From positions 24,817-88,816 of the IMG/VR virus record IMGVR_UViG_3300030329_006606: a stretch of 64,000 nt of DNA; one strand, given 5' to 3'. Both the position numbers and the translations under genes were made by a program. Below the pieces are notes generated by a model. That model was not told the origin of the DNA and made no database searches. It saw only the letters and a list, made by a program, of their open reading frames with translations. The stretch's first letter is position 1. Each line of letters begins with the position of its first letter. The DNA is from a virus. Shown piece after piece: positions 2,817 through 19,210 of this stretch.

Positions 2817-3894
2817 TACAGAAGAAGGTAAATCCCCCTTAGGTCAGATACAGACCTACCTAGAGCAAAACAAGGCGGATCATTATAACTTTGAAGAAGA
2901 AAGAAGTTATGTAGTTTCGAGCGGAAGCTTACTCTTGGATATAGAAATGGGTGGTGGTATTGGCCCCGGGATCATCCGAGCCTCAGGAATAACAGAGGGA
3001 GGTAAAACATCCTGCGCCCTTTCCTTTGCTAAAAATTTCCAGAAGATGGATAATGCTATGGTAGTCTACATTAAATCAGAAGGCAGACTCTCTCAAGAGA
3101 TGCTTGAAAGATCTGGTGTAGATACAAACGAAGACAAATGGTTCGTTTATAAAAGTAACGTTTATGAATCGGTTATTAACCTAATGAGGGAGTTAGTAAA
3201 GAATAATCCTGAGAACTATAAGTATATGTTTATTATAGATTCAATGGATTCCTTGGTTCCAAAAAATGACCTAGAGAAACCACCCGAAGAAGCAAACAAG
3301 GTGGCTGGCGGAGCATTACTTAGCGCAGACTTTCTCCGCAAAATGGCCCTAGGACTAACAACCCGCGGCCACATATGTTATATGGTGTCACAAGTAAGAA
3401 GCAAAGTTTCCATAAACCCTTACGAGAAAGTAGATGCTCGCGTAACAAATGCCTCAGGAGGCAACGCATTACTACACTACAGTGACTGGATTATTGAATT
3501 TCAAGAAAGACACCTGAAAGATATTATAAGCACCCAACCTCAAGGCAAAGGCGATCTCTTAGGCCACTGGTGTAAGGTTGTATTTAAAAAGAGCCCGAAC
3601 GAAAAAACGGGCACCATGGTCAGATACCCTATTAGATATGGCCGAACAGATGGAAAGAGTATATGGGTCGAGTATGAAGTAGTAGACATGATGTTGCAGT
3701 GGGACATGGCCTCAGCCAGAGGAGCGTGGGTTACGATCTCTGACGAAGTGGTAGAAGAAGTGCAAGAAAAAACAGGTCAAGAATTTAAAAAACAACACCA
3801 AGGTATGGACAACTTCAGGAAATACCTTGAAGAGAACAAGGAGATAGGTAAACATCTTTTTTATAAATTTAGAGATGTTTTGAAAAAGTCTTAA
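2794..3894 (+). CDS. recA: RecA/UvsX-like recombinase
   Basis: SSGSLLLDIEMGGG, Walker A GITEGGKTS, Walker B IIDSMD, SQVR, SGGNALLHYS. Divergent phage-type sequence; ATG 2794 preferred over TTG 2779. Confidence 0.85.
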   Translation: MARKKKTDTEEGKSPLGQIQTYLEQNKADHYNFEEERSYVVSSGSLLLDIEMGGGIGPGIIRASGITEGGKTSCALSFAKNFQKMDNAMVVYIKSEGRLSQEMLERSGVDTNEDKWFVYKSNVYESVINLMRELVKNNPENYKYMFIIDSMDSLVPKNDLEKPPEEANKVAGGALLSADFLRKMALGLTTRGHICYMVSQVRSKVSINPYEKVDARVTNASGGNALLHYSDWIIEFQERHLKDIISTQPQGKGDLLGHWCKVVFKKSPNEKTGTMVRYPIRYGRTDGKSIWVEYEVVDMMLQWDMASARGAWVTISDEVVEEVQEKTGQEFKKQHQGMDNFRKYLEENKEIGKHLFYKFRDVLKKS

Positions 3895-3908
3895 TCTATG
3901 TGTATAAT
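3880..3908 (+). promoter_or_regulatory. probable tmRNA promoter TTGAAA-N17-TATAAT
   Basis: Perfect TATAAT at 3903-3908, 7 nt before the tmRNA 5' G at 3916. Confidence 0.6.
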
Positions 3909-3915
3909 ATTTTAT

Positions 3916-4342
3916 GGGAGCGTACTGGATTCGATTTAGAACCTTACGCCAGATTGCAAGCAGAGGATAATGGTTGGCCTCTTAAAACATCCATTAAAAA
4001 ATCCAAATGCCAATGATACCATTGACATGGAGATGGCCCCTTCGCTAGCCGAAGCTGACGCGATCCTCGCTAAGTTCGGTTATGTTGAAGAGGAAACTCT
4101 CCAACTAGCAGCTTAAGTTCTGCTACGTCCTACTCTGGATGCTCGTTAAAGAGATAGGGCGACGACAGCGAGCAAAACACTGGTTGAGTCTGGTTGAGTC
4201 TCCAGTAGTTTAAAAAAAGATAGACCAAACCTTACGTGAAGTCGTCGGCCACGGACACGTATTGAATTAGGCCGACTAAGCTTGTAGTACATTTGAGCCG
4301 ATGGCTTTAAAGACGCGGGTTCGACTCCCGCCGCTTCCACCA
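3916..4342 (+). ncRNA. ssrA: tmRNA; tag ORF 4009-4116 encodes (A)ANDTIDMEMAPSLAEADAILAKFGYVEEETLQLAA*
   Basis: 5' GGGAGCG pairs with 3' CGCTTCC-ACCA including the G3.U alanine identity pair. GGATTCGA D-loop analogue, GCGGGTTCGACTCCCGC T-arm, pk1-like GAGG..ATGG TTGG CCTC..CCAT, and a tag ending in LAA-stop. Confidence 0.95.
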
Positions 4343-4351
4343 ATTTAAATT

Positions 4352-4873
4352 ATGGCTCATCCACAACAGGCAGAATTCTGCAATAAGGTTAAGGCGCTTT
4401 TCCCAAACCACTTTACTGGTGTCAACGTCTTAGATTGCGGCTCCCAAGATATTAACGGCAACAACAGATATTTATTTGAAAATTCTCAATACCTCGGGAT
4501 AGACTTAGGCGAAGGACGAAACGTAGACGTAGTTTGCCCTATGTCTAAGTTTAAATCTGATTCTGGATATCAGACGATTATTTCCACAGAAGCTTTTGAA
4601 CACGACAAAGACTTCGACGCCAGTTTAAAAAATATTTTAAACCTCCTACTTCCCGGGGGCCTATTCCTAATGACTTGCGCTGGCCACGGTAGACAAGAAC
4701 ATGGCACTCATAGAACCACTGGGTCTGACTCACCATACACCTTAGATTTCTATCAAAACAGATACCCCGAAGACTTCAGTAAAGCTATTGACCTATACAA
4801 AGAATTTAAAAAATTCTCCTTTGAATACAACAGCGAAACCCGAGATTTATATTTTTGGGGATTAAAATACTAG
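4352..4873 (+). CDS. class I SAM-dependent methyltransferase
   Basis: VLDCGSQDING, GIDLGEGRNVDVV, ISTEAFEH, LLPGG motifs. Confidence 0.8.
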   Translation: MAHPQQAEFCNKVKALFPNHFTGVNVLDCGSQDINGNNRYLFENSQYLGIDLGEGRNVDVVCPMSKFKSDSGYQTIISTEAFEHDKDFDASLKNILNLLLPGGLFLMTCAGHGRQEHGTHRTTGSDSPYTLDFYQNRYPEDFSKAIDLYKEFKKFSFEYNSETRDLYFWGLKY

Positions 4874-5338: not shown

Positions 5339-6823
5339 ATGGACTCAATTTATTCTATACAAGTAGAGAAGCATGTCTTAGGAGGGCTAATTAAAATTCC
5401 AAAATCCTTCGCGGACGTGGAGAAATACATCACGGAAAAAGACTTTGTCAATGAAGTTCATCAAACCGTTTTTCGTGTTCTCCGAGAAGTTATTTTAGAG
5501 AGAGGAACAGTAGACACGGTTATTCTTGCTGAGAAAATAAAAAATATAGGAATATCATTCAAGGATGACATTAATATTTACGACTACCTTGAGGCTATTT
5601 CTTTCAGCCAGATAACCTACAAAGCAATTATAGAAGCATCTCAAGAATTAAAGAAACTTACTGTACGTAGAGAGCTTTACCATAAGTGCGACGAAATTAA
5701 AAAATTTATCAAAGAGAACGGTGAAGAACAAATTGATGCAATCGTGAGCGAGGTGGACTCCCTGTATGGAGAACAACTCAGAACCTATGAGATAGAAGAT
5801 GAGCCAATCAATATATTCGAAACTATGAGAGACAATGTAGAAGAAAGAGGAAACAACCCACAAGACGACATGGGGATTCAAACCCCATACCCAGAATTTA
5901 ACAGATTATATGGTGGCCTTCGCCCCGGCAACCTCTACGCTATAGTAGCTAGACCGGGGCAAGGCAAAACAACTTGGTTAAATGACATCTGCTTTAAGAC
6001 AGCAAAGATGAATAAAATACCCGTTCTCATCTTGGATACAGAGATGAGTTCAATGGATATTCAATCCAGAATAGCCTCGGCACTCACAGGGGTTCCGCCT
6101 TGGTACATAGAAACAGGAAACTGGCGCAAAAATCCAGAGCTTATAGATAAAGTGAGAGAAGGACTGAAAAGCGTTCGCAATGAGAACCTCCATCACTTTT
6201 TCGTTGGTAATAAAAATATAGATCAAATTTGTTCTCTGGTAAGGCGCTGGCACTTGACTCACGTGGGCCGCGGAAACCCATTCGTGCTTGGTTATGACTA
6301 TGTTAAGCTTACCGGAGAGAAAGTTGGCAACAACTGGGGAGAACACCAAGCTATCGGTGACAAAATTGACAAGCTCAAGAAACTGTCAGAAGAGTTACAA
6401 TGCCCCCTAATCACAGCAATGCAACTAAATAGGTCCGGCGAAAACTTTAACCGCCGCGCGCAAGGTGTGGTGGATGATAGCTCTGCCATATCTTTGTCAG
6501 ATAGACTTCAGTGGTTTGCATCATTTGTTGCAATTTTTCGCCGAAAAGTTGTGGAAGAAATCGCTGAGGATGGAGAGCAATTCGGAACCCATAAGCTCAT
6601 ACCGCTTAAGACTAGGTTCCAAGGTAAAGACGCGGCCGGTCATCATGATATTGTCAGAAGGTTAGGTCAAGACGGAGAAGAACGTTGGGTGAATAATTAT
6701 TTAAATTTTAATTGTGAAAACTTTAATGTTCGAGAAATGGGCTCCCTAAGGGATGTAGACGCTAGAGCAAGAGAGCAATATCTAGTAGAAGGAGAAAATC
6801 CACATGACGGAGACGTAATATAA
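5339..6823 (+). CDS. dnaB: replicative DNA helicase, DnaB family
   Basis: N-terminal E..VLGGL..DF...HQ.VF, Walker A ARPGQGKT, DTEMS, YDYVKL, AMQLNR, K.R arginine finger. Confidence 0.9.
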   Translation: MDSIYSIQVEKHVLGGLIKIPKSFADVEKYITEKDFVNEVHQTVFRVLREVILERGTVDTVILAEKIKNIGISFKDDINIYDYLEAISFSQITYKAIIEASQELKKLTVRRELYHKCDEIKKFIKENGEEQIDAIVSEVDSLYGEQLRTYEIEDEPINIFETMRDNVEERGNNPQDDMGIQTPYPEFNRLYGGLRPGNLYAIVARPGQGKTTWLNDICFKTAKMNKIPVLILDTEMSSMDIQSRIASALTGVPPWYIETGNWRKNPELIDKVREGLKSVRNENLHHFFVGNKNIDQICSLVRRWHLTHVGRGNPFVLGYDYVKLTGEKVGNNWGEHQAIGDKIDKLKKLSEELQCPLITAMQLNRSGENFNRRAQGVVDDSSAISLSDRLQWFASFVAIFRRKVVEEIAEDGEQFGTHKLIPLKTRFQGKDAAGHHDIVRRLGQDGEERWVNNYLNFNCENFNVREMGSLRDVDARAREQYLVEGENPHDGDVI

Positions 6824-6824
6824 A

Positions 6825-7736
6825 ATGGACTACAAAGAAATATTATTAGACATGGGGTATTCGAACATAATCGATAACGGTAGAGAGTTAAGAACTAAGC
6901 CGATCTACCGCGACTCAAGCAGCAATACGGTTCTAAGCATCAGGAAAGACACCGGCCACTTCATTGATTTCAGCAAGCAAATCAGTGGATCATTCTTAGA
7001 ACTGGTTAAGATTTCCCAAGGGTTTAAGGATTACAAAGAAGCTCAAAACTATTTAGAAGATAAAGGCAGCGTCACAAGAAAAGTTATCCGTAAGCCTGAG
7101 GTGAAATCCCCAAAAGTTTTTCCCTCGGAATACTTATCAAAACTCCTACCAGATCATAGCTACTGGATTGACAGGGGTATAGAAAAATCAGTGTTAGAGG
7201 AATTCGGCGGCGGCCTTTGTAAGACGGGGAGTATGGAGGGCCGCTACGTATTCCCTATTTTAACCTCCAAGAATGAATTGATAGGAGTCTCCGGAAGAGA
7301 CGTGGAAAACAGGGAATCTAAACCAAAGTGGAAACATAAAGGTACTAAAGCTTTCTGGAAATACCCATTACAAATTAATTATAAGATTCTTAAAGAAAAG
7401 AAAGAAATCATACTTATCGAGAGTATCGGTGACGGTCTATCCCTCTGGCAAGCTGGCGTTAAGAATTTTATAGTCACATTCGGTTTAGATTTAAATACTA
7501 ATTTAGTTAATTTATTTTTAAAATTAGACCCCAAGAAAATATATATCTCATTCAATAATGATTCAAATAATAATAATGCAGGTAATTTAGCAGCAGAAAA
7601 AGCAAAGAAAAAATTATGTAAATATTTTGATCATAATCAAATCTCTATTAAATTACCTACAAAGAAAGATTTTGGAGAAATGAGTATGAAGGAGATAAAA
7701 GAATGGCAAATTAATACTTGCCAATCTGTAAAATAA
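6825..7736 (+). CDS. DNA primase (Toprim) with a Cys-less N-terminal domain
   Basis: YW..RGI, RYVFPI...G..GR, PKWK, ILIESIGD, ISFNND...AG..AA, KDFGE; directly follows dnaB. Confidence 0.8.
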   Translation: MDYKEILLDMGYSNIIDNGRELRTKPIYRDSSSNTVLSIRKDTGHFIDFSKQISGSFLELVKISQGFKDYKEAQNYLEDKGSVTRKVIRKPEVKSPKVFPSEYLSKLLPDHSYWIDRGIEKSVLEEFGGGLCKTGSMEGRYVFPILTSKNELIGVSGRDVENRESKPKWKHKGTKAFWKYPLQINYKILKEKKEIILIESIGDGLSLWQAGVKNFIVTFGLDLNTNLVNLFLKLDPKKIYISFNNDSNNNNAGNLAAEKAKKKLCKYFDHNQISIKLPTKKDFGEMSMKEIKEWQINTCQSVK

Positions 7737-7745
7737 TAATATAAT
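7718..7745 (+). promoter_or_regulatory. sigma70-like promoter TTGCCA-N16-TATAAT
   Basis: Overlaps the primase 3' end; 9 nt before ATG 7755. Confidence 0.6.
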
Positions 7746-7754
7746 ATTACTAAC

Positions 7755-7919
7755 ATGGCACTCAAAATACAAAAACAAGAACGTAAAACTGTAGATAAAA
7801 AAACTAGACAGGGCTGTAGCAACAACAGCAAAGGTATGAAGAAGTACAGAGGGCAAGGCGGACCAAGAAAAAGATGCCGCCAGTCTTGTAAGCCCGGAAG
7901 ACGGGGGGCTAAAAAATGA
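7755..7919 (+). CDS. small basic protein (54 aa) with KKTRQG...KKYRGQG motif; not in the ORF track
   Basis: Translated by hand: MALKIQKQERKTVDKKTRQGCSNNSKGMKKYRGQGGPRKRCRQSCKPGRRGAKK. It has its own promoter and an ATGA overlap with the next gene. Confidence 0.7.
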   Translation: MALKIQKQERKTVDKKTRQGCSNNSKGMKKYRGQGGPRKRCRQSCKPGRRGAKK

Positions 7920-8470
7920 GGCTAGATCATGTAGCTTACAGAGTTGAGAATAGGTATAGATCCGCTGGATTTTTTACCGAAGCTTTTGGTTATAAGCTTG
8001 GCACAGAATTTCAAATCGAATTTGATGATGGGTCCAAGGCGGACTGTCTAGCTCTTACGCCACCTGAAATAAGGCACCCAGACACAATGCTCTGGACTCA
8101 TCACGCTTTACACCCCGCACCCTACGAGACGATCAACGCAGAATACCATGCCCCACCCGAGATTTTCGTTAGTGATGGCAGCAAGGGGTCCATCGTGGGC
8201 GACTGGGTGGCAGAAAGAGGCGGAGTAGGGGGTATCCATCACATGGCATACCAAGTTGAGGACGTAGCGGCAATCATGAAAGAATGGAAAGAAAAAGGGT
8301 ACGCGGAGTTCTACTCTGAAGAACCTATAACCTGCAAAGATCCGGACTTAACACAGGTCTTCACCAAACCATCAGAACTTACAGGAGTAATATATGAATT
8401 CATTAACAGAGAAGGCGCTGGATTTTGCAAAGACAGCGTTAAGGAACTTATGCAAAGCACTAAGGAATAA
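7916..8470 (+). CDS. VOC-fold metalloenzyme resembling the C-terminal catalytic domain of HPPD
   Basis: LDHVAY, GGIHHMAYQV and YEFINREGAGF give a His/His/Glu triad; the tail mirrors HPPD FFEIIQR..GFG. Confidence 0.7.
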   Translation: MRLDHVAYRVENRYRSAGFFTEAFGYKLGTEFQIEFDDGSKADCLALTPPEIRHPDTMLWTHHALHPAPYETINAEYHAPPEIFVSDGSKGSIVGDWVAERGGVGGIHHMAYQVEDVAAIMKEWKEKGYAEFYSEEPITCKDPDLTQVFTKPSELTGVIYEFINREGAGFCKDSVKELMQSTKE

Positions 8471-8471
8471 T

Positions 8472-10007
8472 ATGAGAGACTTTGAAGGCAGAAACTACAT
8501 TAATGGCAAGTGGCAAGCTACTGATGAGATGTATACTAAAATCAACCCTGCCACTGGCAAAGCGCAAGGCGCTTTCCCCTTGAGTGGACCGATAGAAGTA
8601 GAGACAGCTATTGAATCCGCTCGCTCAACTTTTAAAAAATGGAGAAAAGTTAGTAGGTTTGTACGCTCAGACTACATGAACAAAGTTGCTCAGTTAATTG
8701 AGGAAAGGAAAGATTTACTAGCTACAGCGATATCCCTAGAAACAGGTAAAAACTACAACGAAAGCGTGGCTGAAGTCAACGAAGCACTACACATGGCCCA
8801 ATTTGCTTTTGGATCAGGAAGATACCCCCACGGCGAAGCGGTATCATCAGAAATACAAGACAAAGATTCTTACATGCTAAGAAAACCTAAAGGGGTGATA
8901 GCTATCATAACTCCGTTTAATTTTCCCCTCGCAATAGGTATGTTTTGGAATGCTGCTCCAGCGTTAGTAGAAGGAAACACTATAGTAATCAAACCAAGCG
9001 AGGATGCGCCAATGTCAACTCAACTAGCTGTTCAAATCTATGAGGACGCAGGTATCCCAGCCGGTGTTATTAATTTGGTTCACGGAAAAGGTCACACTGG
9101 TGATCTTTTAGCTCGTGGCGAAGTGGATCACATTTGTTTCACTGGTTCCGCTGACGTTGGTCAACACATTCGTAAAGTCGCAGCCGAGTCTTGGCATAAA
9201 ACAACCTCTTGTGAACTGGGGAGCAAATCAGCCTGTATTGTCTTTGATGACGTAGAAATTCCTTTAGCTCTAGAAGCCTCAATCGCTAGTGCGTTTAAAT
9301 TATCAGGACAAAGATGTGTTTCTTCTGGACGAATCCTAGTACAAAGAACTATCTGCGATGATTTTGCTCGGAGGTTCGCCGATAAAGCTAGCAAATTAAA
9401 GACAGGTAACCCTTTTAAAAAGATCGTAAAGTCAACAGGTATGCCAGAAGCTGTTGCGTGGGATGAACTAGTCCCCGACGAAGAGATTTATTACGGACCA
9501 ATCATAAACGAGCAAGGCTACGCAAAAATAAGAGCTTACAATAAAATGGTCAATGATGATAGTCAAGCCGAAGTATTACTTTCCCCCACTTATACCGGAG
9601 AACACGGGGCCTATTACTCAACTCCTATGGTTTATAAAACGGAGTGGCGCGGCCACGATGCACAATACCTACGAAACGAAGTATTTGGCCCTCACGTAGC
9701 CATAATCCCATTTGATACAATGGAAGACGCGATTCGCATTTATAACGATACCGAATATGGTCTCGCAGTCGGAATCCTAACTAATGATTTCAGAAAAGCG
9801 CGCGTTATGAGGGACGAGTGTGAGGCTGGTATGATTTACTGGAACGGTGGATCTATAGCAGCCGAGTCACATCTTGCATTTGGTGGAGTTAAGAAATCAG
9901 GAAACGGATTCCCAAGCGCAGCCAGAACTTTTAGAGCCGTAACTCATGAAATTAGCTGGACAGTTAACCACGCAAATGAGCTAACGTTTCCTCAAGGAAT
10001 GAAATGA
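8472..10007 (+). CDS. NAD(P)-dependent aldehyde dehydrogenase (possibly aminoadipate-semialdehyde dehydrogenase)
   Basis: ITPFNFP, KPSE, FTGS, ELGSK (catalytic Glu), GQRC (catalytic Cys), EVFGP, FGGVKKSG. AAGGA RBS-like site before ATG 8472. Confidence 0.92.
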   Translation: MRDFEGRNYINGKWQATDEMYTKINPATGKAQGAFPLSGPIEVETAIESARSTFKKWRKVSRFVRSDYMNKVAQLIEERKDLLATAISLETGKNYNESVAEVNEALHMAQFAFGSGRYPHGEAVSSEIQDKDSYMLRKPKGVIAIITPFNFPLAIGMFWNAAPALVEGNTIVIKPSEDAPMSTQLAVQIYEDAGIPAGVINLVHGKGHTGDLLARGEVDHICFTGSADVGQHIRKVAAESWHKTTSCELGSKSACIVFDDVEIPLALEASIASAFKLSGQRCVSSGRILVQRTICDDFARRFADKASKLKTGNPFKKIVKSTGMPEAVAWDELVPDEEIYYGPIINEQGYAKIRAYNKMVNDDSQAEVLLSPTYTGEHGAYYSTPMVYKTEWRGHDAQYLRNEVFGPHVAIIPFDTMEDAIRIYNDTEYGLAVGILTNDFRKARVMRDECEAGMIYWNGGSIAAESHLAFGGVKKSGNGFPSAARTFRAVTHEISWTVNHANELTFPQGMK

Positions 10008-11203
10008 TGACAGAGCATATACAACCAGACGAAAGAAAGACTGCTGCTGTTCTTGGAGTAGGCAGAATGGGAACAGTAATTTCATACGCGATGAAAGAGC
10101 TTGGTTTTTTTGTTGTCGGCGTAGACAACAACGAATCTGCTGCCGTAAACTTTCGAAAACGAATGTCAGCAAACGATGGCACATTCTACAGAGTAACTGA
10201 ATCTGGAACCCTAGATGAAAATGCCATTGCAGCAGGAGTACCCCCAAAAGATTTCAGATATGTTCTCTCTCACGAGAAGCCAGATATTGTAATAAGCAGT
10301 TTACCCTACCACCAAACCGAAGAAGTCGCTGCGTGGTGTATAGAAAACTCTTTAAGATATTGCGATCTAGGAGGAAGAGTGGATGTATCAGAAAGAATCA
10401 ATAAACTTGCCAATGAAAAAGCTAAGGCTCCCGTAATGACAGATTTAGGGCTTGCCCCGGGTTGGGTCAATATCTTAGCAGAACATGCTTGTAAGGAGAT
10501 TCACGGCACCCCTGATGAAGTCTTAATGATGGTCGGAGGAATCCCGGGGACACCGAACAATCCCCCGCTTAATTATGCGTGTACTTGGTCAACAGACGGG
10601 CTGCTTAACGAATACGCAGATGACTGTGAAATACTCTCTGATGGAGAAATAAAAAAAGTAAAAGGCATGGACGGCTTAATTGACGTAGAATTCAATAAAC
10701 TAAAGTTTACAAACTCCTCCCGAAAAATAGAAGCATTCTATACGAGCGGCGGTGCGTCACACACCATTAAAGATATGAAAGAAAGGGGTGTAAAAAATTG
10801 CGCTTATAGAACCATGCGTTGGAAAGGTCATGGAGATATTATAAAACTTTTAATTAGACAATGTGATTTGAGCAGAAAATGCTTAGAAAAAATATTTGAA
10901 AAAGGTTGCCCACACACAGAGGGTGACCCAGACCTAGTCCTCATTAAAGTAAAAGTTACATGCGGTAAACTAGTATGGTCTGATGAAATAATTATAGGAT
11001 ATGATTCAGAATTTTCAGCTATGCAAAAGTCCACAGCCTTCTCTATCTCTGCTGTAGCATCTCAAATGGCTGAAGGGATGTATGATGGTAAGCTAGATCA
11101 ACATAGAGATTATTGGACAGAATACCCAAAAGCGTTATCATATAAACATATAAATTACAAAGACTTCAGCGATAGATTAAACAAGCTAGGAATTCAATTA
11201 TAA
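10004..11203 (+). CDS. saccharopine dehydrogenase family, lysine 6-dehydrogenase-like
   Basis: GVGRMG, SSLPY, YCDLGG, GLAPG, VGGIP..P.PPLNY..TWS.DGLLNEY, EAFYTSGG, Y.TMRW.GH, SAMQKST. Confidence 0.85.
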   Translation: MMTEHIQPDERKTAAVLGVGRMGTVISYAMKELGFFVVGVDNNESAAVNFRKRMSANDGTFYRVTESGTLDENAIAAGVPPKDFRYVLSHEKPDIVISSLPYHQTEEVAAWCIENSLRYCDLGGRVDVSERINKLANEKAKAPVMTDLGLAPGWVNILAEHACKEIHGTPDEVLMMVGGIPGTPNNPPLNYACTWSTDGLLNEYADDCEILSDGEIKKVKGMDGLIDVEFNKLKFTNSSRKIEAFYTSGGASHTIKDMKERGVKNCAYRTMRWKGHGDIIKLLIRQCDLSRKCLEKIFEKGCPHTEGDPDLVLIKVKVTCGKLVWSDEIIIGYDSEFSAMQKSTAFSISAVASQMAEGMYDGKLDQHRDYWTEYPKALSYKHINYKDFSDRLNKLGIQL

Positions 11204-11472
11204 TGAACGACATCAAGTTAAACGCCGATATGATTAACTGGTTAGATAAAAATAAATCTGACTATCAAAACATTGCTATCGATAACCAAACCTTCCCCTC
11301 TGATGCGGTCACAAGGATGAACCAAATAAGCAAATCCCCACACTCAATGGCCGAGCGGCGCCTCTTACTTAAGGCGTTCTGCGAACAATTTAATATGCTC
11401 CCTTACAGCGAGGGAGTACCAGTAGCAATCAAGATGATTGACCAGTGGCAACATATTAAAAAATATAAATAA
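11203..11472 (+). CDS. hypothetical protein
   Basis: 89-aa ORF abutting both neighbours. Confidence 0.55.
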   Translation: MNDIKLNADMINWLDKNKSDYQNIAIDNQTFPSDAVTRMNQISKSPHSMAERRLLLKAFCEQFNMLPYSEGVPVAIKMIDQWQHIKKYK

Positions 11473-11473
11473 T

Positions 11474-12427
11474 ATGCCTGAAAATAAAGTACTATCCGCT
11501 TCAAGGATTAAAACCTTAGAAGACTGCGCGTGGAAATACTGGTGCAATTACCACCTAAAAGTCCCACAGAAAGGTAATGACGGCGCAAGCAGAGGAACAG
11601 TTTGCCACAGAATCTTTGAGCTTCTGTTGCTTAAAAAAAATAAAAAATATTTCGACGTAATCATAGACCAAAAATCCACAACCGCAAGTCCGGCTGTGTG
11701 CAGGTTAACAAGAATGCTCCTAAAACAAGAAGGTCAAGACGCAGAGTTTTACAACGAAGAAAACTACCAATTATGTCTAGACATGATATATGTCGGGCTT
11801 AATTTTGATTTCTTCGGAAAAGGCGGAGAACCAGATAAACCGGAAATAAAATTTGTTATAGAAAAAGAAAACCCAGAATACAAGGTAATGGGCTTCATGG
11901 ATAAAGTTCTAAAGTTTGATGATAAAATAAAAATAGTAGACTATAAATCAAGCAAGCGCAAATTCTCCAAAGAAGATTTAAAAGCAAACATGCAAGCCAT
12001 GGTTTATACTTTAGCAAGCAAAGAGCTATGGCCCAAGAACCTCACGACCCTAGTTGAGTTCGTATTTCTAAAGTTCCCAAAGCAACCACTCCAACAGGTG
12101 GAAGTGTCAGACGACCAACTCAAAGGATTTGAGCATTACCTAGCCCATATGTACAAAGTTATCAACAACTTTACCGAGGAAATGGCGAAACAAAACTACG
12201 CAAAAGATAAGTACGCAACCAAGTTCTTTTGTCGGTCAGACAAATCGGGGTGGAAATGCCCCTACCTAGAGAAGTTTGATTATTATATTCTTCTTAGTGA
12301 AGAAGGTAAAATTCTTAAGTCTGCCTTTAAAAAGAAAGACTTGACAGCCTCGGATGGTCAAAAAATAGAGAAAAAAACATACGAAGGATGCCCCGCTCAC
12401 ACCGCTGACGACCCTTTCGACATTTAG
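11474..12427 (+). CDS. PD-(D/E)xK exonuclease, Cas4/RecB-like
   Basis: LSASRI...C.WKY, RGT.CH, GFMD, IVDYKSS, Q..VY, plus C-terminal Cys residues (possible Fe-S staple). Confidence 0.8.
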   Translation: MPENKVLSASRIKTLEDCAWKYWCNYHLKVPQKGNDGASRGTVCHRIFELLLLKKNKKYFDVIIDQKSTTASPAVCRLTRMLLKQEGQDAEFYNEENYQLCLDMIYVGLNFDFFGKGGEPDKPEIKFVIEKENPEYKVMGFMDKVLKFDDKIKIVDYKSSKRKFSKEDLKANMQAMVYTLASKELWPKNLTTLVEFVFLKFPKQPLQQVEVSDDQLKGFEHYLAHMYKVINNFTEEMAKQNYAKDKYATKFFCRSDKSGWKCPYLEKFDYYILLSEEGKILKSAFKKKDLTASDGQKIEKKTYEGCPAHTADDPFDI

Positions 12428-12430
12428 CTC

Positions 12431-12458
12431 TTGACATTTTTGAAAAATGTCGTACCAT
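12431..12458 (+). promoter_or_regulatory. sigma70-like promoter TTGACA-N16-TACCAT, 6 nt before ATG 12465
   Basis: Perfect -35 in an intergenic gap. Confidence 0.7.
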
Positions 12459-12464
12459 TATAGT

Positions 12465-13232
12465 ATGGATAAAGATAATGTGATTCCAATCTTTAAATCT
12501 CACTACAGCCTAGGTAAATCCATCCTCACGCTAGAGCCTCCGACAGAAGATAAAACGTACCCTAGGTCTTGTTTGTCCATATGTAAAGACTACGGGATTT
12601 CCAAATTTATACTGGTAGATGATAACATGAGCGGGTTCCTTCAAGCTTATGAATCCTCAAAAGAACTAGGGGTTCAATTGATTTTTGGTGTGAGAATAAC
12701 TGTATGCGCAGACATGGAAGAGAAGAATCAGGAGTCGTTAAAGACAAACAATAAAGTAGTAATCTTCGCAAAAAACTCAGAAGGATACAAGAAATTAATT
12801 AAAATTTACACTCTTGCCGCAAGAAAGGGATTCTACTATGAACCGAGAATAGACAGTGCTAATCTAAAGAAACTATGGGATAATAATTTAAAATTATGTA
12901 TTCCCTTTTATGATTCTTTTATACATGCTAATTTAATCAAAAACAGTCTTTGTGTACCGGAATTTGATTTTACTGAATTAACTTTCTTTTCAGAAGAAAA
13001 TGAACTACCTTTTAACTCAATAATCCAAAGTGGCATTGAGAAGTTCGTTGGGGCAAAAAAAGATATAATTAAAGTTAAAAGTATATACTACGAAAAGAAG
13101 GAGGACTTTAAAGCCTACCTTACATTTAAATGTATCAACAACAGAACCACACTTGACAAACCAAACTTAGACCACATGACCAGTAACGAGTTCTGTATTG
13201 AAAGCTGGAAGGAAGAAAATGGTACCGTTTAG
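12465..13232 (+). CDS. stand-alone PHP domain of DNA polymerase III alpha (split DnaE N-terminus)
   Basis: KSHYSLGKSI, LVDDNMSG, IFGVRI, FAKNSEGYKKLIKI, GFYYEPRID match the DnaE PHP domain; metal-binding His residues are partly lost. Confidence 0.8.
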   Translation: MDKDNVIPIFKSHYSLGKSILTLEPPTEDKTYPRSCLSICKDYGISKFILVDDNMSGFLQAYESSKELGVQLIFGVRITVCADMEEKNQESLKTNNKVVIFAKNSEGYKKLIKIYTLAARKGFYYEPRIDSANLKKLWDNNLKLCIPFYDSFIHANLIKNSLCVPEFDFTELTFFSEENELPFNSIIQSGIEKFVGAKKDIIKVKSIYYEKKEDFKAYLTFKCINNRTTLDKPNLDHMTSNEFCIESWKEENGTV

Positions 13233-13581
13233 AGTTAAAAAGGTAGAGAAAACTTGGGGCCACGAACTGTGGCTTGCCAATAACGAAACAGAAAATTACT
13301 GCGCCAAAATCCTCTTCATCAAAAAGAATAAGAGCACATCAATGCATTACCACGTCAAAAAGCATGAAACAATGCACGTCTTAAAAGGAACCTTAATGGT
13401 AGAAGGACTAGGAGACAGGCATAACTTCGGGCATAAATTTGCAATGATGGCTAAAGAAGGTGAATCTCTAGAAATAGAAAGGGGCCGAGCCCATAAACTG
13501 GTAGCCCACCACGAAGATTTAACTATCATAGAAGCGAGCACATTCCACAGAGATAAAGACAGCTATAGACTACATAAATAA
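13219..13581 (+). CDS. cupin protein (mannose-6-phosphate isomerase-like)
   Basis: VEKTWGHE, SMHYH.KKHET..VL.G, H.L.A, IEAST.H...DSYR. Confidence 0.75.
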   Translation: MVPFRVKKVEKTWGHELWLANNETENYCAKILFIKKNKSTSMHYHVKKHETMHVLKGTLMVEGLGDRHNFGHKFAMMAKEGESLEIERGRAHKLVAHHEDLTIIEASTFHRDKDSYRLHK

Positions 13582-13582
13582 C

Positions 13583-14221
13583 ATGGACGACCATTTACTT
13601 AGATTCGACAAAGAAAAAGTTTACTGTTTCATAGATTTTGAAACGGAAAACCTGTGCCTTAATAATTCCCACAATCTACCTTGGCAAGTAGCAATGATAA
13701 AAGCGGTTGACGGTAAAAAGATAGACGAAAAAAATTTTTACGTCAAATGGCCCCGACAAGTTAATGTAAGTAAGGAAGCCGCTAGAATAACTAGATTCAA
13801 CTTAAAGAAATACGAAGAAATCGCCGTACCACACGATCAGATTTTCCCCACCGTTGAAGACTGGTTGGACAATTCTGATTATGTTTTAGGGCATAATATT
13901 TTAGGGTTTGATTTATATCTTATAAAAGATTTCTATAAGGAAATGGGTAAGGATTACAAACATTTGGTCGAAAAAATGATTGATACTATGTGTGTAGCTC
14001 GTGGTATAAAATACGACGAACGAATCAAAGACGATGAAAATTTCTTAGCATGGCAATACAAAATGTTACACACCCACAGAAAGGGTGTAAAAACCAACCT
14101 AACAGCCCTAGGTAAAGAATTTGACATACAACACAATTACGAAAAGCTTCACAATGCTATTGTAGATTTAGAATTAAACCTTAAAGTTTGGAATAAATTA
14201 AAATGGATGATTGATGTATAG
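13583..14221 (+). CDS. DEDDh 3'-5' exonuclease (DnaQ/epsilon-like)
   Basis: IDFETE, GHNILGFD, IDT, LHNAIVD. Confidence 0.85.
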   Translation: MDDHLLRFDKEKVYCFIDFETENLCLNNSHNLPWQVAMIKAVDGKKIDEKNFYVKWPRQVNVSKEAARITRFNLKKYEEIAVPHDQIFPTVEDWLDNSDYVLGHNILGFDLYLIKDFYKEMGKDYKHLVEKMIDTMCVARGIKYDERIKDDENFLAWQYKMLHTHRKGVKTNLTALGKEFDIQHNYEKLHNAIVDLELNLKVWNKLKWMIDV

Positions 14222-14229
14222 TGTTAGGT

Positions 14230-15849
14230 ATGAATATTCTTGGTATAACCCACCCCATAAGCTTTAATAGTAGTGCTTGCATAATCAGAAGCGACGAACT
14301 TATTGCTATAGGAGAAGAGGAAAGGTTTAACAGAGTTAAACACGCCCCTAGAATTTTCCCAGAACAATCTGTAAAATTCTGCCTGAAAAAAGCGAATTTA
14401 TCACCCGAAGATATTCATATTGTTGCCGTAGGGTTTGGGGATAAAAATTTCTGCGGAGGACCCGGCAGCAAAGAAATGATCAAGAGAAACTGGGATAAAT
14501 GTTTGTTTGGTTTGGCTAAGTTAGGGATAGACTCTTGTAAAACTCGTTTTTTCTCCCACCACTTATGTCATATGATGTCTACCTTTGCTGCGGGAGGACA
14601 TAAAAACTGGTCAAATATAATGTCTATCGATGGAGCGGGAGATGATTGCTCTGGGTTCATGGCTAATTCCGAGGGGCTTTTTCGTGACCTAAAAAGTTCT
14701 GTTAACTGCTCTGCTAACACCAGATTTCCTAGCTATATAATCCCTTGTGGAGCCTCTTGGGGGCTGCTATGGGAGGATGTCACCGAGCTTCTTGGTTTTA
14801 AAAGACACTCAGGCGAAGGAAAGACAATGGGGCTCGCCTCTTACGGCCAAGAAGATATGAGGTTATTACCACCTCTATTCTCAGAGAACTACCCAAACAC
14901 AGAAAGCTTTAGAAATTTTTTCAAAAGCAATGGGTGGATAAATACCCGCGTAGACCCTTTGTCTGATACAGGCAAAAACCTAGCGCACACCCTGCAACAA
15001 TATTATAATGAAAAACTAATTTATTATGCCAGAAGGCTGTACGAGAACACGAACTGCAAAAAGTTTTCCCTAGCAGGAGGGTGTGCGTTAAATTGTACAG
15101 CTAATGGAGAACTAGCCAAGCAAGATTTTGTTAAAGAATTATATATCCAACCCTTAAGTCACGACGCTGGAACTTCCGTTGGCGCAGCGATCATAGCATA
15201 CTGGGCCGAAAACAACAAGCTTCCTAAGGCAAGAATGCCTCACGCCTACTGGGGCGCAGAATACTCCCACGAAGAAATACTTAGCGAATTAAATAAACAA
15301 AATATTCCCTTTAAAGAACAAGACCCAGCCAAAGCTGCCGCGGAATTGCTCGCGGATAATAAAGTTGTATGCTTTTTTCAAGGTCGAGCCGAAGTCGGAC
15401 CGAGAGCTTTAGGAAACAGGAGTATCCTAGCAAACCCAATCTTTAAAGATAACCTAGATAAAGTTAACAAGATCAAAGGAAGAGAAAGCTGGAGACCTCT
15501 TGCGCCCAGCATTTTAGAAGAAAGTTATTTTGACGTAGTTGATGCAAAATTTTTATCCCCTTTTATGCTTATGGCTGCGCCTGTAAAAGAATATTATATA
15601 GAAAAAATTCCAGCAGTAGTTCATGTAGACAACTCGTGCAGACCCCAATCTGTAAACAAAAACACAAATAAAATTTTTCACAAAACAATTCTTGAATTTA
15701 AAAAAAGAACTGGTATACCTGTAGTATTGAATACAAGTTATAATTTAAGCCACGAACCCATAGTTAATTCACCAAGGGATGCCATCAAGACCTTCTTAAG
15801 TTCTGATGCAGACGCCTTAGTTATTGGTGATTTTGTTGTAGAAAAATGA
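14230..15849 (+). CDS. carbamoyltransferase, NodU/CmcH/TobZ family
   Basis: EEERFNRVKH, HHLCH, DGAGD, EGKTMGLASYG, LAGGCALN, DAGTSVG, E.GPRALGNRSILA, KGRE.WRPLAP, HVDNSCRPQ, LNTS.N. Confidence 0.92.
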   Translation: MNILGITHPISFNSSACIIRSDELIAIGEEERFNRVKHAPRIFPEQSVKFCLKKANLSPEDIHIVAVGFGDKNFCGGPGSKEMIKRNWDKCLFGLAKLGIDSCKTRFFSHHLCHMMSTFAAGGHKNWSNIMSIDGAGDDCSGFMANSEGLFRDLKSSVNCSANTRFPSYIIPCGASWGLLWEDVTELLGFKRHSGEGKTMGLASYGQEDMRLLPPLFSENYPNTESFRNFFKSNGWINTRVDPLSDTGKNLAHTLQQYYNEKLIYYARRLYENTNCKKFSLAGGCALNCTANGELAKQDFVKELYIQPLSHDAGTSVGAAIIAYWAENNKLPKARMPHAYWGAEYSHEEILSELNKQNIPFKEQDPAKAAAELLADNKVVCFFQGRAEVGPRALGNRSILANPIFKDNLDKVNKIKGRESWRPLAPSILEESYFDVVDAKFLSPFMLMAAPVKEYYIEKIPAVVHVDNSCRPQSVNKNTNKIFHKTILEFKKRTGIPVVLNTSYNLSHEPIVNSPRDAIKTFLSSDADALVIGDFVVEK

Positions 15850-18392
15850 ATTTTATGAGCACATTTGAAAAGCTAGAACTCGATCTTCATGGAGTAAGAT
15901 TGCCGTCTTTCTCTATTGAAAATAAATACAAACGCAACCTCAAAGTTAGCGAAGACATCTCCAACGAAGAATTTTTAGACGCGCTTTGCCAAGCGGGACT
16001 TGATAAAGTAACAGCCAACTTAAACGCAAAGAACGCCAAAGCCTACGAAGCTAGACTTAAAAGAGAGCTCGACACCGTAAAGGAACTAGGATTCGTCGAT
16101 TATTTATTGCTAGTTTGGGACGTGATCAACTTTTGCAACGAAAGTAAAATTCCTACCGGCGTTGGTCGCGGAAGCGCCGCTGGCAGTTTGATTTTGTTTT
16201 TGATTGGGGTAACAAAAGTCGACCCTCTTAAATATAATTTATTCTTCGAAAGATTTATCTCTAAGATTAGAGCTAAGAAAAAAGTAGTAGATGATATAAC
16301 TTATCTTGACGGATCATTAATGATGGATGTAGATTTAGACATATGCTACTACAACCGCCAAAAAGTTTTAGAATATTTAGAGAATAAATTCGAAGGAAAG
16401 ACTTCTAAAATCCTTACTCTTAACACTCTAAGCACTAAACTGCTCATAAAAGAATGTGGAAAAGTAATTTCTAATAAAAGCGAACAAGAAATGAACAAAG
16501 TTTCTGCGCTGATACCCAAGGTCTTTGGGCAAATCAAAAGCCTAGAAGAAGCTTACGCAGAGAAAGAAGAGTTTAAAGGGTGGTGCGACCAGAACAAAGA
16601 AATATATGATATAGCCCTAAAACTCAGGGGCTTAAACAAGAATAAAGGAGTTCATCCGTCAGCGGTTTCACTATCCTTCGATAAAATGGAGGACTCCTGC
16701 CCCACAGAATTAACCTCCGATAAGAAGGGGTTCGTTTCCTCTTATGACATGAATTGGGTTTCTATTTTTAATGTTAAATTAGATATTCTTGGGCTTAGAG
16801 CCGTGTCGGTTGTCGATGATGTATGTAAAAACGTTGGCATAGAACTTTCTGATATTGACCTTACGGACCCAGCCATATATCAAAACTTACAAGACTTACG
16901 TACGCCTCATGGCCTGTTCCAAATCGAAGCGGAAACCAATTATAGAGTCTGCCAAAAAGTTAAACCCAAAAACCTAGAAGAACTTTCCGCCGTTCTCGCG
17001 CTTGCTAGACCGGGAGCCTTGCAGTTTGTAGATCAGTACGCCGCTTACGTAAATGAAGATGAGTACGAACCGATCCACCCTTTCTTCGATGATATATTAT
17101 CCTCTACGGGGGGCGTTGCTCTTTACCAAGAGCAGTTAATGCAAATGGCGAATAAGGTTGGGTTCACACTCGACGAAGCCGAAATTCTCCGCAGAATCGT
17201 AGGTAAGAAAAAGATTTCCGAGGTTAAAAAATGGAAAGCTAAAATTAAAAATAAAATTAAAGAGAAAAAACTAGACCCTAATATAGCGGATATTCTTTGG
17301 AGCATTTTAGAGGACTCTGCTAATTATTCTTTTAATAAATCTCACTCCATATCCTATGGCGCACTGTGTGCAATCACCACTCACTTAAAATTTAAGTATC
17401 CCCAACAATTTTTCTTAAGCTTACTTCGAATGACTCGCCACGAGCCAGATCCAATTAGTGAGATATCCAAAATTCAAAAAGAAATGGATTACTTCGGCAC
17501 GAAATTGTTACCGCCACATATTGTGAAATCCAAAATGGACTTCGAGATTGAAGGCGAAGATATAAGATTTGGTTTGCTTTCTATTAAAGGCATTAGCGAT
17601 AAAAGTATAGAAAAACTTAGCGATTTCCGCAGCGAATACTCCAACAAATTCGAAGTATTCGAAGGAGCAAAAGAATGCGGACTAACCATAGGAGCACTCT
17701 CAGCATTAATCCAAGCCGGTACCTTCCAAGGCTTCAAACAATCTCGCAGTAAGATTGTTTATGAAGCTCAACTTTGGAACGTGCTAACACAGAAGGAGAA
17801 AAAAATCGCCATGGAAGTGGCCTCAAAACATGAGTTTGATTTGGTTGAAGTAATTAAAGACTTAGCTTCAAAAAAGGACGAAAAAGGTAAACCGTTTATT
17901 AAAGAGTCGAGAATGCAAACGATCAAAAGAAAATCAGAACCTTATAAGAAAATATATTTTAAGAATAAAGTCTCTGAATCTTTTGCCAACTGGTATTATG
18001 AAAAGAACTTGCTTGGCTACACATACAACAAGGACTTGCGCGACATATTCTCAGACAAAAGAGAAGACTTAATGAGCCTCAGAGATATTGAAGGACTACC
18101 CACGGACTCAAGGGTTGTTTTTATTGGTACGGTTAGCGAAAAGCCATTTTTTGGTTCATCAAAGAACGGGAATAATTATATGAAATTATTCGTCGAGGAC
18201 GAGACCGCAGCCCTGAAGACCATGATATTCAACAAGAAGCTAGAAACATGCAAAAGCATGAACGACGGTTTCCCAAAAGAAAAAAGCATCGTCATCGTCA
18301 AGGGTACAACCAAAGACGAAGTGCTGTTCGCAGACAGCATCTCCGTACAAAGCAATAAAATTTACACCAAGCTATCAGAACTAAAAGAGTAA
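15846..18392 (+). CDS. dnaE: DNA polymerase III alpha subunit core (lacks PHP domain)
   Basis: GF.DY.L.V.D, GVGRGSAAGSL, L.FERF, DVDLD, GVHPSA, KLDILGL, LFQIE, LARPG, YQEQ.M, YSFNKSH, IRFGL.SIKG and a C-terminal OB fold. Confidence 0.93.
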   Translation: MNFMSTFEKLELDLHGVRLPSFSIENKYKRNLKVSEDISNEEFLDALCQAGLDKVTANLNAKNAKAYEARLKRELDTVKELGFVDYLLLVWDVINFCNESKIPTGVGRGSAAGSLILFLIGVTKVDPLKYNLFFERFISKIRAKKKVVDDITYLDGSLMMDVDLDICYYNRQKVLEYLENKFEGKTSKILTLNTLSTKLLIKECGKVISNKSEQEMNKVSALIPKVFGQIKSLEEAYAEKEEFKGWCDQNKEIYDIALKLRGLNKNKGVHPSAVSLSFDKMEDSCPTELTSDKKGFVSSYDMNWVSIFNVKLDILGLRAVSVVDDVCKNVGIELSDIDLTDPAIYQNLQDLRTPHGLFQIEAETNYRVCQKVKPKNLEELSAVLALARPGALQFVDQYAAYVNEDEYEPIHPFFDDILSSTGGVALYQEQLMQMANKVGFTLDEAEILRRIVGKKKISEVKKWKAKIKNKIKEKKLDPNIADILWSILEDSANYSFNKSHSISYGALCAITTHLKFKYPQQFFLSLLRMTRHEPDPISEISKIQKEMDYFGTKLLPPHIVKSKMDFEIEGEDIRFGLLSIKGISDKSIEKLSDFRSEYSNKFEVFEGAKECGLTIGALSALIQAGTFQGFKQSRSKIVYEAQLWNVLTQKEKKIAMEVASKHEFDLVEVIKDLASKKDEKGKPFIKESRMQTIKRKSEPYKKIYFKNKVSESFANWYYEKNLLGYTYNKDLRDIFSDKREDLMSLRDIEGLPTDSRVVFIGTVSEKPFFGSSKNGNNYMKLFVEDETAALKTMIFNKKLETCKSMNDGFPKEKSIVIVKGTTKDEVLFADSISVQSNKIYTKLSELKE

Positions 18393-19177: not shown

Positions 19178-19201
19178 CAATACTAAAAAACCCCCTATAA
19201 T
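19174..19201 (+). promoter_or_regulatory. consensus sigma70 promoter TTGACA-N16-TATAAT
   Basis: Both hexamers are perfect; 9 nt before ATG 19211. Confidence 0.8.
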
Positions 19202-19210
19202 AATAACAGT

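Follow-up and report, generated by a model that had tools for sequence, protein, structure and literature searches.

Why would a phage keep three closely packed genes of apparent amino-acid metabolism among its replication genes? The question is raised by positions 7916-11203 (+ strand) of a stretch of 64,000 nucleotides, here called the window, which constitutes the last 64 kb of the 88.8-kb virus record IMGVR_UViG_3300030329_006606 (IMG/VR). The cassette encodes a 184-amino acid (aa) single-domain VOC metalloenzyme of the HPPD/HMS/HglS/MMCE type, recognised by Pfam and alignments (7916-8470), a 511-aa NAD(P)-dependent aldehyde dehydrogenase (ALDH) recognised by the Pfam domain Aldedh (8472-10007) and a 399-aa protein of the saccharopine dehydrogenase (SDH) family, nearest to L-lysine 6-dehydrogenase (LysDH) by Pfam, profile and fold (10004-11203).

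A sequence-only reading of the window had proposed an auxiliary pathway channelling lysine to 2-hydroxyglutarate and 2-oxoglutarate. The LysDH-like gene, the linkage of the trio and the analogy with a rhizobial gene cluster speak for this proposal, whereas the failure of the ALDH and the VOC protein on the corresponding family models speaks against it; the chances that the trio serves the phage as an auxiliary module, breaking down lysine oxidatively in the infected cell, appear evenly balanced. Substrates and products are throughout those that we infer from the observed genes, folds, conserved residues, linkage and presence in an RNA library. During replication, such a module would supply the phage with 2-oxoglutarate, reducing power and nitrogen in the form of ammonium or glutamate. 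Uncultured marine phages of a common group would then redirect nitrogen-rich lysine during infection, with relatives doing likewise with arginine, and multi-step amino-acid catabolism would be added to the auxiliary metabolism known from phages, which comprises genes for nucleotides, photosynthesis, phosphate and polyamines. The literature on phage or auxiliary lysine catabolism, LysDH and DUF1338, part of it represented by titles and abstracts, yielded no description of a phage module of this kind. Since the ALDH and the SDH-family protein are currently without names in public sources, their annotation would also gain.

Arrangement of the cassette and its recurrence in viral contigs

The three genes were tightly coupled. 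The stop codon of the VOC gene (8468-8470) was followed, after a 1-nt spacer, by the ATG of the ALDH gene at 8472; the ALDH stop and the dehydrogenase ATG at 10004 overlapped (ATGA), and the dehydrogenase stop overlapped the next ATG at 11203. Both the ALDH and the dehydrogenase starts were preceded by AAGGAA. The longest ALDH frame started at 8394, inside the VOC gene (537 aa), but 8472 is the likelier start since the consensus of 29 phage ALDHs begins there. The trio, all on the + strand, was thus found as described in the sequence-only reading, coupled and located between a primase and a nuclease gene.

A scan of viral contigs with the single dehydrogenase sequence returned no match, while an alignment-based scan retrieved 109 contigs, the best 80 of which were analysed as dehydrogenase-anchored loci. 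The ALDH-anchored scan gave 130 viral contigs (best 80 analysed) and the VOC-anchored set was composed of 80 loci; the three scans share contigs, so that their counts are not independent. An ALDH gene was present in 66 of the 80 dehydrogenase-anchored loci and a VOC gene in 46 (BLASTP), each time in the orientation of the dehydrogenase. Of the 14 loci devoid of ALDH, eight contained less than 2.7 kb of DNA upstream of the dehydrogenase. Seen from the ALDH, both partners accompanied it in 44 loci, the dehydrogenase only in 17, the VOC gene only in 16 and neither in three, the dehydrogenase being no more than 9 kb away in 61 of the 80. Among the other 19, 13 had less than 3.5 kb of downstream DNA, one carried the dehydrogenase 8.9 kb downstream of the ALDH on the same contig, and five displayed a succession of VOC, ALDH, arginine-dihydrolase (ArgZ)-like and L-lysine 6-transaminase (LAT)-like genes, with the dehydrogenase nowhere in the record (the largest of 119 kb and 79% complete). 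As counted over the 67 ALDH-anchored loci with enough downstream DNA, the dehydrogenase was found in 61, at 8.9 kb in one, and a LAT-like gene took its place in five.

Nearly all loci displayed the order VOC-ALDH-dehydrogenase, the last two being separated by other genes over 0 to 5.7 kb. Their flanks varied, including DnaB-primase and nuclease genes, two ribonucleotide reductase (RNR) subunits, UvsX, polymerase genes, or sigma factor and nucleoside-transferase genes. As gene order was kept despite such different flanks, it is preserved by something beyond shared ancestry of the whole region; the arrangement of the trio is more than chance, and the neighbourhood check suggested earlier came out in its favour. 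The frequent flanking genes were general early-region genes (RNR subunits, PhoH, sigma factor, nucleoside deoxyribosyltransferase-like protein, IMPDH/GMP reductase, glycosyltransferases) and contributed no pathway steps. A role in DNA or sugar hypermodification, considered because of GDP-mannose dehydratase, carbamoyltransferase and glycosyltransferase genes around the cassette, was rejected since cassette order persists in quite different flanks.

Close dehydrogenase homologues came from marine metagenomes. A pattern scan of 185,579 species genomes (one per species) revealed seven dehydrogenase loci, all on contigs of metagenome-assembled genomes; the two closest also contained the ALDH and looked like phage DNA. 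This subfamily is close to virus-only. The collection of deposited and cultured phages contained no near-identical DNA for the cassette and no protein match for the dehydrogenase; there, matches to the VOC protein were limited to two huge-phage records without annotation, one of which also matched the ALDH, at a distance of 124 kb from its VOC gene.

Many relatives carried, after the ALDH or the LAT-like gene, a protein of ~280 aa from the UDP-glucose/GDP-mannose dehydrogenase family (e.g. L071:6159-6998, L259:8013-8855 and L260:8215-8967). Relative to the NAD-binding domain model it lacks the initial ~60 positions; it was also found in two jumbo phages and was absent from the present phage genome.

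Dehydrogenase, aldehyde dehydrogenase and their bacterial counterparts

The dehydrogenase displayed the Pfam domain Sacchrp_dh_C (PF16653, E 3.5e-21), and Sacchrp_dh_NADP (PF03435) scored 24.6 bits, marginally below its cut-off of 25.1. Glycines G18, G20 and G23 of the GxGxxG Rossmann motif were invariant in 25 dehydrogenase sequences. The single sequence matched PH1688 (3abi), entitled L-lysine dehydrogenase of P. horikoshii in its structure entry, at 1e-14. With a profile of 25 homologues, the match to 3abi extended over the full length (E 7.8e-29), the next best being 2.8e-16 and saccharopine reductases ranging from 1e-12 to 1e-16; neither carboxyspermidine dehydrogenase nor homospermidine synthase appeared in this search at E <= 0.01. 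Foldseek, queried with an AlphaFold model (pLDDT 87.9), also placed 3abi first (E 5e-24, target-normalised TM 0.81-0.84), followed by saccharopine reductases, carboxyspermidine dehydrogenases and homospermidine synthases (E 3e-19, 4e-16 and 1e-9, respectively); carboxyspermidine dehydrogenase occupied rank 12 and lower, with TM values of 0.67-0.72. Profile and fold thus support a protein that is LysDH-like rather than carboxyspermidine- or saccharopine-reductase-like, as the sequence-only reading had it, with 3abi above the saccharopine and carboxyspermidine enzymes by both methods. PH1688 (EC 1.4.1.18) is also of similar size.

The ALDH displayed a full-length Aldedh domain (PF00171, E 1.7e-121). 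Residues N150, E248 and C282 (511-aa numbering), which we take to be the oxyanion Asn, the general-base Glu and the catalytic Cys, were invariant in 29 sequences. Its highest NCBIfam scores were 308 bits (2-oxoglutarate semialdehyde), 300 bits (aminobutyraldehyde) and 292 bits (succinate semialdehyde). In the proposed pathway, the LysDH-like enzyme would deaminate L-lysine at its epsilon position, using NAD(P)+ and producing 2-aminoadipate semialdehyde/piperideine-6-carboxylate (P6C) and ammonium, and the ALDH would convert 2-aminoadipate semialdehyde/P6C into 2-aminoadipate. That this pair carries lysine to 2-aminoadipate is, in our estimation, slightly favoured, with ornithine or other omega-amines as alternative substrates.

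A substitution observed in relatives bears on the ALDH substrate. In 25 viral loci a class-III aminotransferase was located between ALDH and dehydrogenase; it reached 484 bits on the LAT model (cut-off 520.8), the next family scoring 228. LAT and LysDH yield the same product from lysine. The strongest comparative argument for aminoadipate semialdehyde/P6C as the probable ALDH substrate is therefore the LAT-like gene in the dehydrogenase slot, together with the five records in which it replaces the dehydrogenase. These loci recall the lat-pcd route of actinomycetes (LAT plus P6C dehydrogenase), which adjoins DUF1338 genes in Rhodococcus and M. tuberculosis according to the available part of its description (bioRxiv 10.1101/450254); the present window differs in having no LAT gene.

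A bacterial parallel was encountered on plasmids. Tblastn revealed ~30% identical dehydrogenase genes in 81 plasmid or chromid records, alphaproteobacterial and other, of which five were inspected; family models were run on the pRiA4b cluster only. Three of the five displayed only an Lrp regulator beside the SDH-family gene. In the other two (A. fabrum, i.e. Agrobacterium, pRiA4b, NZ_CP128217.1; a R. leguminosarum plasmid, NZ_CP016288.1), the gene adjoined an operon encoding a VOC protein, an ALDH, an aminotransferase and an FAD/Fe-S protein. The pRiA4b products exceeded the curated cut-offs for HglS (750.8 vs 550), P6C dehydrogenase (810.6 vs 730) and the D-2-hydroxyglutarate dehydrogenase YdiJ (1465 vs 1350), and the VOC protein was 56% identical to E. 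coli YdcJ. By these family scores, the cluster (HglS, P6C dehydrogenase, aminotransferase and YdiJ, plus the Lrp-regulated LysDH-type gene of the SDH family) represents the HglS-type lysine pathway with a predicted LysDH-type entry step; that pathway is described for P. putida and plants in the accessible portions of two reports (bioRxiv 10.1101/450254, PMC7286885).

Phage and rhizobial clusters share the order VOC, ALDH and, later, SDH-family dehydrogenase, and their dehydrogenases are homologous (32% identity, E 2e-41, for the pRiA4b gene). They differ in that the phage ALDH belongs to another lineage (27% identity), in that the phage VOC protein has 184 aa instead of 463 without detectable sequence similarity, and in that the phage cassette has neither aminotransferase nor YdiJ. 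On sequence comparison, only the dehydrogenase would qualify as an orthologue-grade relative of the parts of the rhizobial route. A parallel between the phage module and the bacterial route from LysDH (or LAT) through P6C dehydrogenase to HglS, with the same gene order, is thus partly supported by analogy.

Several observations weigh against this lysine pathway as far as the pair is concerned. The dehydrogenase is only 21% identical to the solved LysDH 3abi, and no NCBIfam model exists for PH1688 or for the phage protein. On the P6C-dehydrogenase model NF050084 the ALDH reached 253.2 bits, with a cut-off of 730 and several other models scoring higher, and it was only 27% identical to the rhizobial P6C dehydrogenase. 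Judged by its sequence it is an intact ALDH outside every curated subfamily scored and is not a P6C-dehydrogenase orthologue. In addition, none of the cassette loci examined contained a 2-aminoadipate aminotransferase. The ALDH may nevertheless act like a P6C dehydrogenase though lying outside that family; the oxidation of P6C assigned to it earlier is consistent with its superfamily and with the LAT-like gene in related cassettes, while any orthology with known P6C dehydrogenases has to be given up.

The VOC protein

The VOC protein displayed the Pfam domains Glyoxalase_4 (28.5 bits) and Glyoxalase (27.4 bits), both slightly over cut-off. Residues H5, R9, E82, H108, H109, Q147, E161 and R165 were invariant in 80 of 80 homologues, as were C44, C140, C171 and H78, and this held inside and outside the cassette. 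The candidate metal ligands H5, H109 (or H108) and E161 align with ligand positions of MMCE and HPPD chains. In HglS, the ligands are His70, His226 and Glu294, Arg74 binds the distal carboxylate of 2-oxoadipate, the R74A variant is inactive, and Arg64 of rice FLO7 sits almost where Arg74 does, as given in the available part of PMC7286885. YdcJ and the Agrobacterium HglS read H68-G-A-I-R72, and the phage VOC family reads H5-[VI]-A-Y-R9.

Queried with a structural model (pLDDT 86.4), Foldseek ranked epimerases and HMS/HPPD together (epimerase 2e-9). In an exhaustive VIA-align comparison the C-terminal catalytic domain of HMS came first (Z 17.1, rmsd 2.6, 154 residues aligned), two epimerase-type chains had Z values of 13.4 and 13.2, and rice HglS 6w1k was fourth (Z 12.3, rmsd 3.5, 160 residues aligned, 24% identity); the DUF1338 structures 3lho, 3iuz and 2rjb reached 10.8, 10.0 and 7.5, respectively. 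The alignment to 6w1k has its start at residue 1 of the model and residue 56 of the chain, which, from the alignment ranges only, would place R9 on Arg64. Two stretches of the VOC profile matched HPPD, that around the second His at 2e-7 and that of the Glu and C-terminal helix at 1.5e-4, and the 4HPPD model TIGR01263 (23.4 bits vs a cut-off of 277) was matched at positions 304-342 of 353. Sequence and model together support a one-domain protein of the HPPD/HMS type with a His/His/Glu triad and an HglS-like Arg at His+4. From HMS and HPPD, whose second-His, Glu and C-terminal-helix stretches it shares, it differs in the lack of the whole N-terminal domain (184 aa vs ~350-400 aa in two domains) and in the Arg at His+4. 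With HglS/DUF1338 proteins (P. putida PP_5260, YdcJ, FLO7) it has in common the triad, the Arg and presumably the VOC fold, their Z values lying below HMS and beside MMCE-type chains, and bacterial HglS genes likewise adjoin ALDH or lysine aminotransferase genes according to the parts available of PMC7286885 and bioRxiv 10.1101/450254; it is less than half their size and displays additional invariant Glu, His and Cys residues.

By this comparison, the enzyme would bind a 2-oxo acid on Fe(II) through His/His/Glu, with Arg9 gripping the distal carboxylate, and would decarboxylate and hydroxylate 2-oxoadipate to 2-hydroxyglutarate in the fashion of HglS. An oxygenase acting on 2-oxoadipate, or on a close 2-oxo-dicarboxylate, is a tentative assignment that we regard as possible rather than probable. 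If correct, the protein would represent a minimal 184-aa scaffold for oxygenases of the HPPD/HMS/HglS type, useful for enzymology; as it is small and soluble-looking, the idea is directly testable.

Sequence comparisons speak against this assignment in several respects. None of 30 VOC family members matched the Pfam HGLS domain (PF07063) at E <= 1, the HglS model NF049974 was not among the NCBIfam matches, and hhalign gave the VOC profile probabilities of 1.4% with YdcJ and 0.7% with the Agrobacterium HglS. Invariant residues E82, H78, H108, C44, C140 and C171 have no role in the HglS scheme. Methylmalonyl-CoA epimerases were the best sequence-level relatives of the VOC profile (6.7e-12). The protein is therefore not a member of the HglS family by sequence, nor do the sequence tests place it in the HPPD or MMCE family. 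What stood of the distinct minimal 2-oxoadipate dioxygenase proposed earlier is the single HPPD/HMS-type domain with its triad and Arg; the link to HglS found no model match. A feature search of a protein atlas pointed to one giant-virus cluster with an HGLS domain (0.91, 167 shared features), to be taken as a lead only.

Could the protein instead be a metal-dependent enzyme of the epimerase, isomerase or glyoxalase type, similar to methylmalonyl-CoA epimerase, acting on a host-derived substrate of its own and merely travelling with the ALDH-dehydrogenase pair? The best matches by sequence and by Foldseek agree with such an enzyme. So does the strand around E82, whose alternate residues E82, F84, S86 and G88 are conserved and which adjoins the position aligned with the epimerase Gln, presumably a metal ligand; with this placement E82 could be a fourth ligand. 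The VIA-align comparison, however, placed the HMS domain clearly first, the extra C-terminal helix aligns with the HPPD C-terminus and is missing from epimerases, and the score on the epimerase model TIGR03081 (39.7 bits, sub-threshold, residues 91-163 only) was far under the cut-off of 114.95. The Arg at His+4, common to VOC and HglS proteins, is replaced by Ala in the two aligned epimerases.

Gene distribution also bears on this question. The VOC gene occurred without ALDH or dehydrogenase within 8 kb in 22 of the 80 VOC-anchored loci, mostly on contigs of 100-530 kb and with its key residues all intact, and the ALDH-dehydrogenase pair occurred without VOC in 17 of the 80 ALDH-anchored loci. 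Its link to the other two genes is looser than theirs to each other. Five jumbo-phage records with a lone VOC gene contained no dehydrogenase; three of them carried an ALDH 40-120 kb away, two carried a LAT-like gene, and two (98% and 100% complete) had neither ALDH nor dehydrogenase, a 98%-complete record having the VOC gene only. Neighbours in jumbo phages (ClpX-like ATPase, GT2, PRPP synthetase, FolD and sigma factor) gave no pathway clue. Lone genes imply that the VOC enzyme can do without a precursor made by the phage, which counts against its obligatory place in a lysine module and agrees with an epimerase-like function; alternatively, production of 2-hydroxyglutarate could itself be the goal of the phage. 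An epimerase-type enzyme is a candidate that we consider rather unlikely.

Other routes, RNA libraries and the remaining phage genome

Genes of the same record located outside the window (- strand, coordinates of locus L261) encode a proline dehydrogenase (432-1292), a protein of the ornithine cyclodeaminase (OCD)/mu-crystallin family, i.e. of the alanine dehydrogenase (AlaDH)/OCD type (2901-3842), a D-2-hydroxyacid dehydrogenase nearest to CtBP and phosphoglycerate dehydrogenases (3839-4843) and a 2-oxoglutarate-Fe dioxygenase (6437-7117). The OCD-family protein was nearest to the alanine dehydrogenase of Archaeoglobus (1omo, 1.7e-44), OCD and lysine cyclodeaminase following at ~1e-23 to 1e-24, and its gene was overlapped by 4 nt by that of the D-2-hydroxyacid dehydrogenase. 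Another phage locus (L017) carried a 71% identical copy of the latter between ALDH and dehydrogenase. In 18 viral loci, OCD-family genes lay no more than ~8 kb from the cassette.

These two enzymes could fill the steps lacking from the cassette, from 2-aminoadipate to 2-oxoadipate and from 2-hydroxyglutarate to 2-oxoglutarate. The first step would be performed by a host aminotransferase or by the AlaDH/OCD-family enzyme of the phage; the host aminotransferase invoked in the sequence-only reading thus remains one option that may not be needed. In the last step, the D-2-hydroxyacid dehydrogenase could turn 2-hydroxyglutarate into 2-oxoglutarate. A self-contained route of five enzymes from lysine to 2-oxoglutarate, built largely of non-orthologous parts, is a speculative and improbable extension; besides the VOC enzyme it may include the LysDH-like enzyme, the divergent ALDH, the AlaDH/OCD-family protein as 2-aminoadipate dehydrogenase and the CtBP-like D-2-hydroxyacid dehydrogenase, and both nitrogens of lysine would be freed as ammonium for nucleotide synthesis.

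Together with the proline dehydrogenase, the same two enzymes could equally serve an ornithine/proline route. The cassette would then pass nitrogen from arginine, ornithine or proline to glutamate, the dehydrogenase or the LAT-like enzyme oxidising the delta-amine of ornithine to glutamate semialdehyde/pyrroline-5-carboxylate (P5C), the ALDH making glutamate and the VOC enzyme taking no part. The ArgZ-like gene next to the aminotransferase in related loci (254 bits, below the cut-off of 450) supports this explanation, as do the proline dehydrogenase and OCD-family protein of the present genome, the 18 loci with OCD-family genes and the ALDH scores of 276 and 255 bits on models for glutamate-semialdehyde dehydrogenase (vs 253 on the P6C model). 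On the other hand, the aminotransferase is far nearer to the LAT model (484 bits) than to the ornithine and acetylornithine transaminase models (168-217 bits), the dehydrogenase has lysine enzymes as its nearest relatives among solved structures and annotated operons, a proline dehydrogenase lay near the cassette in only three viral loci, and the tightly coupled VOC gene is left unexplained. We consider this five-carbon route unlikely.

Least probable by far is a polyamine route, in which the dehydrogenase would be a carboxy(nor)spermidine dehydrogenase or homospermidine-synthase-like and the ALDH would handle an aminoaldehyde such as 4-aminobutanal: the superfamily is the same, aminobutyraldehyde dehydrogenase is the second-best NCBIfam model of the ALDH (300 bits) and phages encode polyamine enzymes (PMC9992855, available part), but carboxyspermidine dehydrogenase and homospermidine synthase were missing from the profile search and ranked below LysDH and saccharopine enzymes by fold, carboxyspermidine decarboxylase was not seen among the cassette genes scanned, and a ~138-aa gene preceding the dehydrogenase in relatives is, by the searches made, HAD-like and not an AdoMet decarboxylase. 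In its available part, that viral survey mentions LysDH solely as being related to homospermidine synthase (PMC9992855).

The ~138-aa gene (e.g. L008:6612-7025) immediately preceded the dehydrogenase in 37 of the 80 dehydrogenase-anchored loci and was absent from the present phage genome. Its rejection as an AdoMet decarboxylase was due to the lack of any Pfam family and to PHROG matches of HAD type (phosphoheptose isomerase or PNK-phosphatase type); one weak PDB match was to a capsule biosynthesis protein.

Twenty public runs contained part or all of the stretch, and its source may be among five of these. One marine metatranscriptome contained 92% of its words, with an uneven contig depth of 0.18 to 60, and a 3035-nt contig from it covered positions 7330-10364 at 100% identity with a word depth of ~50, as compared with 3-5 in DNA from this sample, whose run was flat over the stretch at ~3-6. 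This coverage fits transcription during infection. Contigs from RNA libraries are assembled, may contain DNA and give neither strand nor 5' end, so that they are no proof of transcription, which tempers the support for a module active in the infected cell. In another RNA run, the cassette with its flanks was represented by no more than four short pieces; parts of the stretch lacking cover in every run carry no weight as evidence. Two runs from 2025, labelled with a single coded organism rather than as a metagenome, contained 54-67% of the words with ~1-2% differences (window 7700-11300), and might point to a culture carrying a close relative of the phage.

The promoter claimed at 7718 upstream of the trio was recovered as a sigma-70-type site, TTGCCA-16-TATAAT, at 7718-7745 (+), overlapping the 3' end of the primase gene. 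With 11 of 12 consensus matches it was the top of 18 sites in 7500-11700, but as shuffled versions of this region contained on average 9.9 such sites it amounts to a consensus match only. The RNA-library contig spans it; it is therefore a predicted promoter site, and the transcript may start elsewhere.

Upstream of the cassette are genes for a DnaB helicase (5339-6823) and the Toprim primase (6825-7736); downstream are the PD-(D/E)XK nuclease (11438-12427), a PHP protein (12447-13232, +) and a DnaE-like polymerase (15846-18392, +). A small ORF encoding 54 very basic aa (7755-7919, +) overlaps the VOC start through ATGA, and an 89-aa ORF (11203-11472, +) overlaps the dehydrogenase stop. Neither displayed a Pfam or PHROG family, and homologues were found in none of the 80 dehydrogenase-anchored loci (BLASTP for the 54-aa ORF). 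Neither ORF is a conserved member of the cassette. Bases 1-23,400 of the window carried + strand genes with ~39% G+C.

Further observations concern the remainder of the window. A full-length tmRNA gene was located at 3916-4342 (+), between a UvsX-like recombinase and a methyltransferase; it scored 130.7 bits on Rfam RF00023 (gathering score 47), ARAGORN gave a tag peptide, and its 3' end (4312-4342) reached high depth in several runs. The replicative polymerase appears to be of the DnaE type, with its PHP domain as a separate gene 2.6 kb upstream, and the nearest deposited phages were less than 30% identical. Sugar-modifying genes were interleaved with the replication genes (76-2387, 13198-15849 and 18395-21464, +), encoding DUF5672, GDP-mannose 4,6-dehydratase, a cupin sugar-isomerase-like protein, a NodU/Nol-type carbamoyltransferase and two glycosyltransferase-like proteins. 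The - strand of 23844-57942 displayed very large ORFs of 1442, 3001, 3706, 1502 and 916 aa and a higher G+C content (~43-48%).

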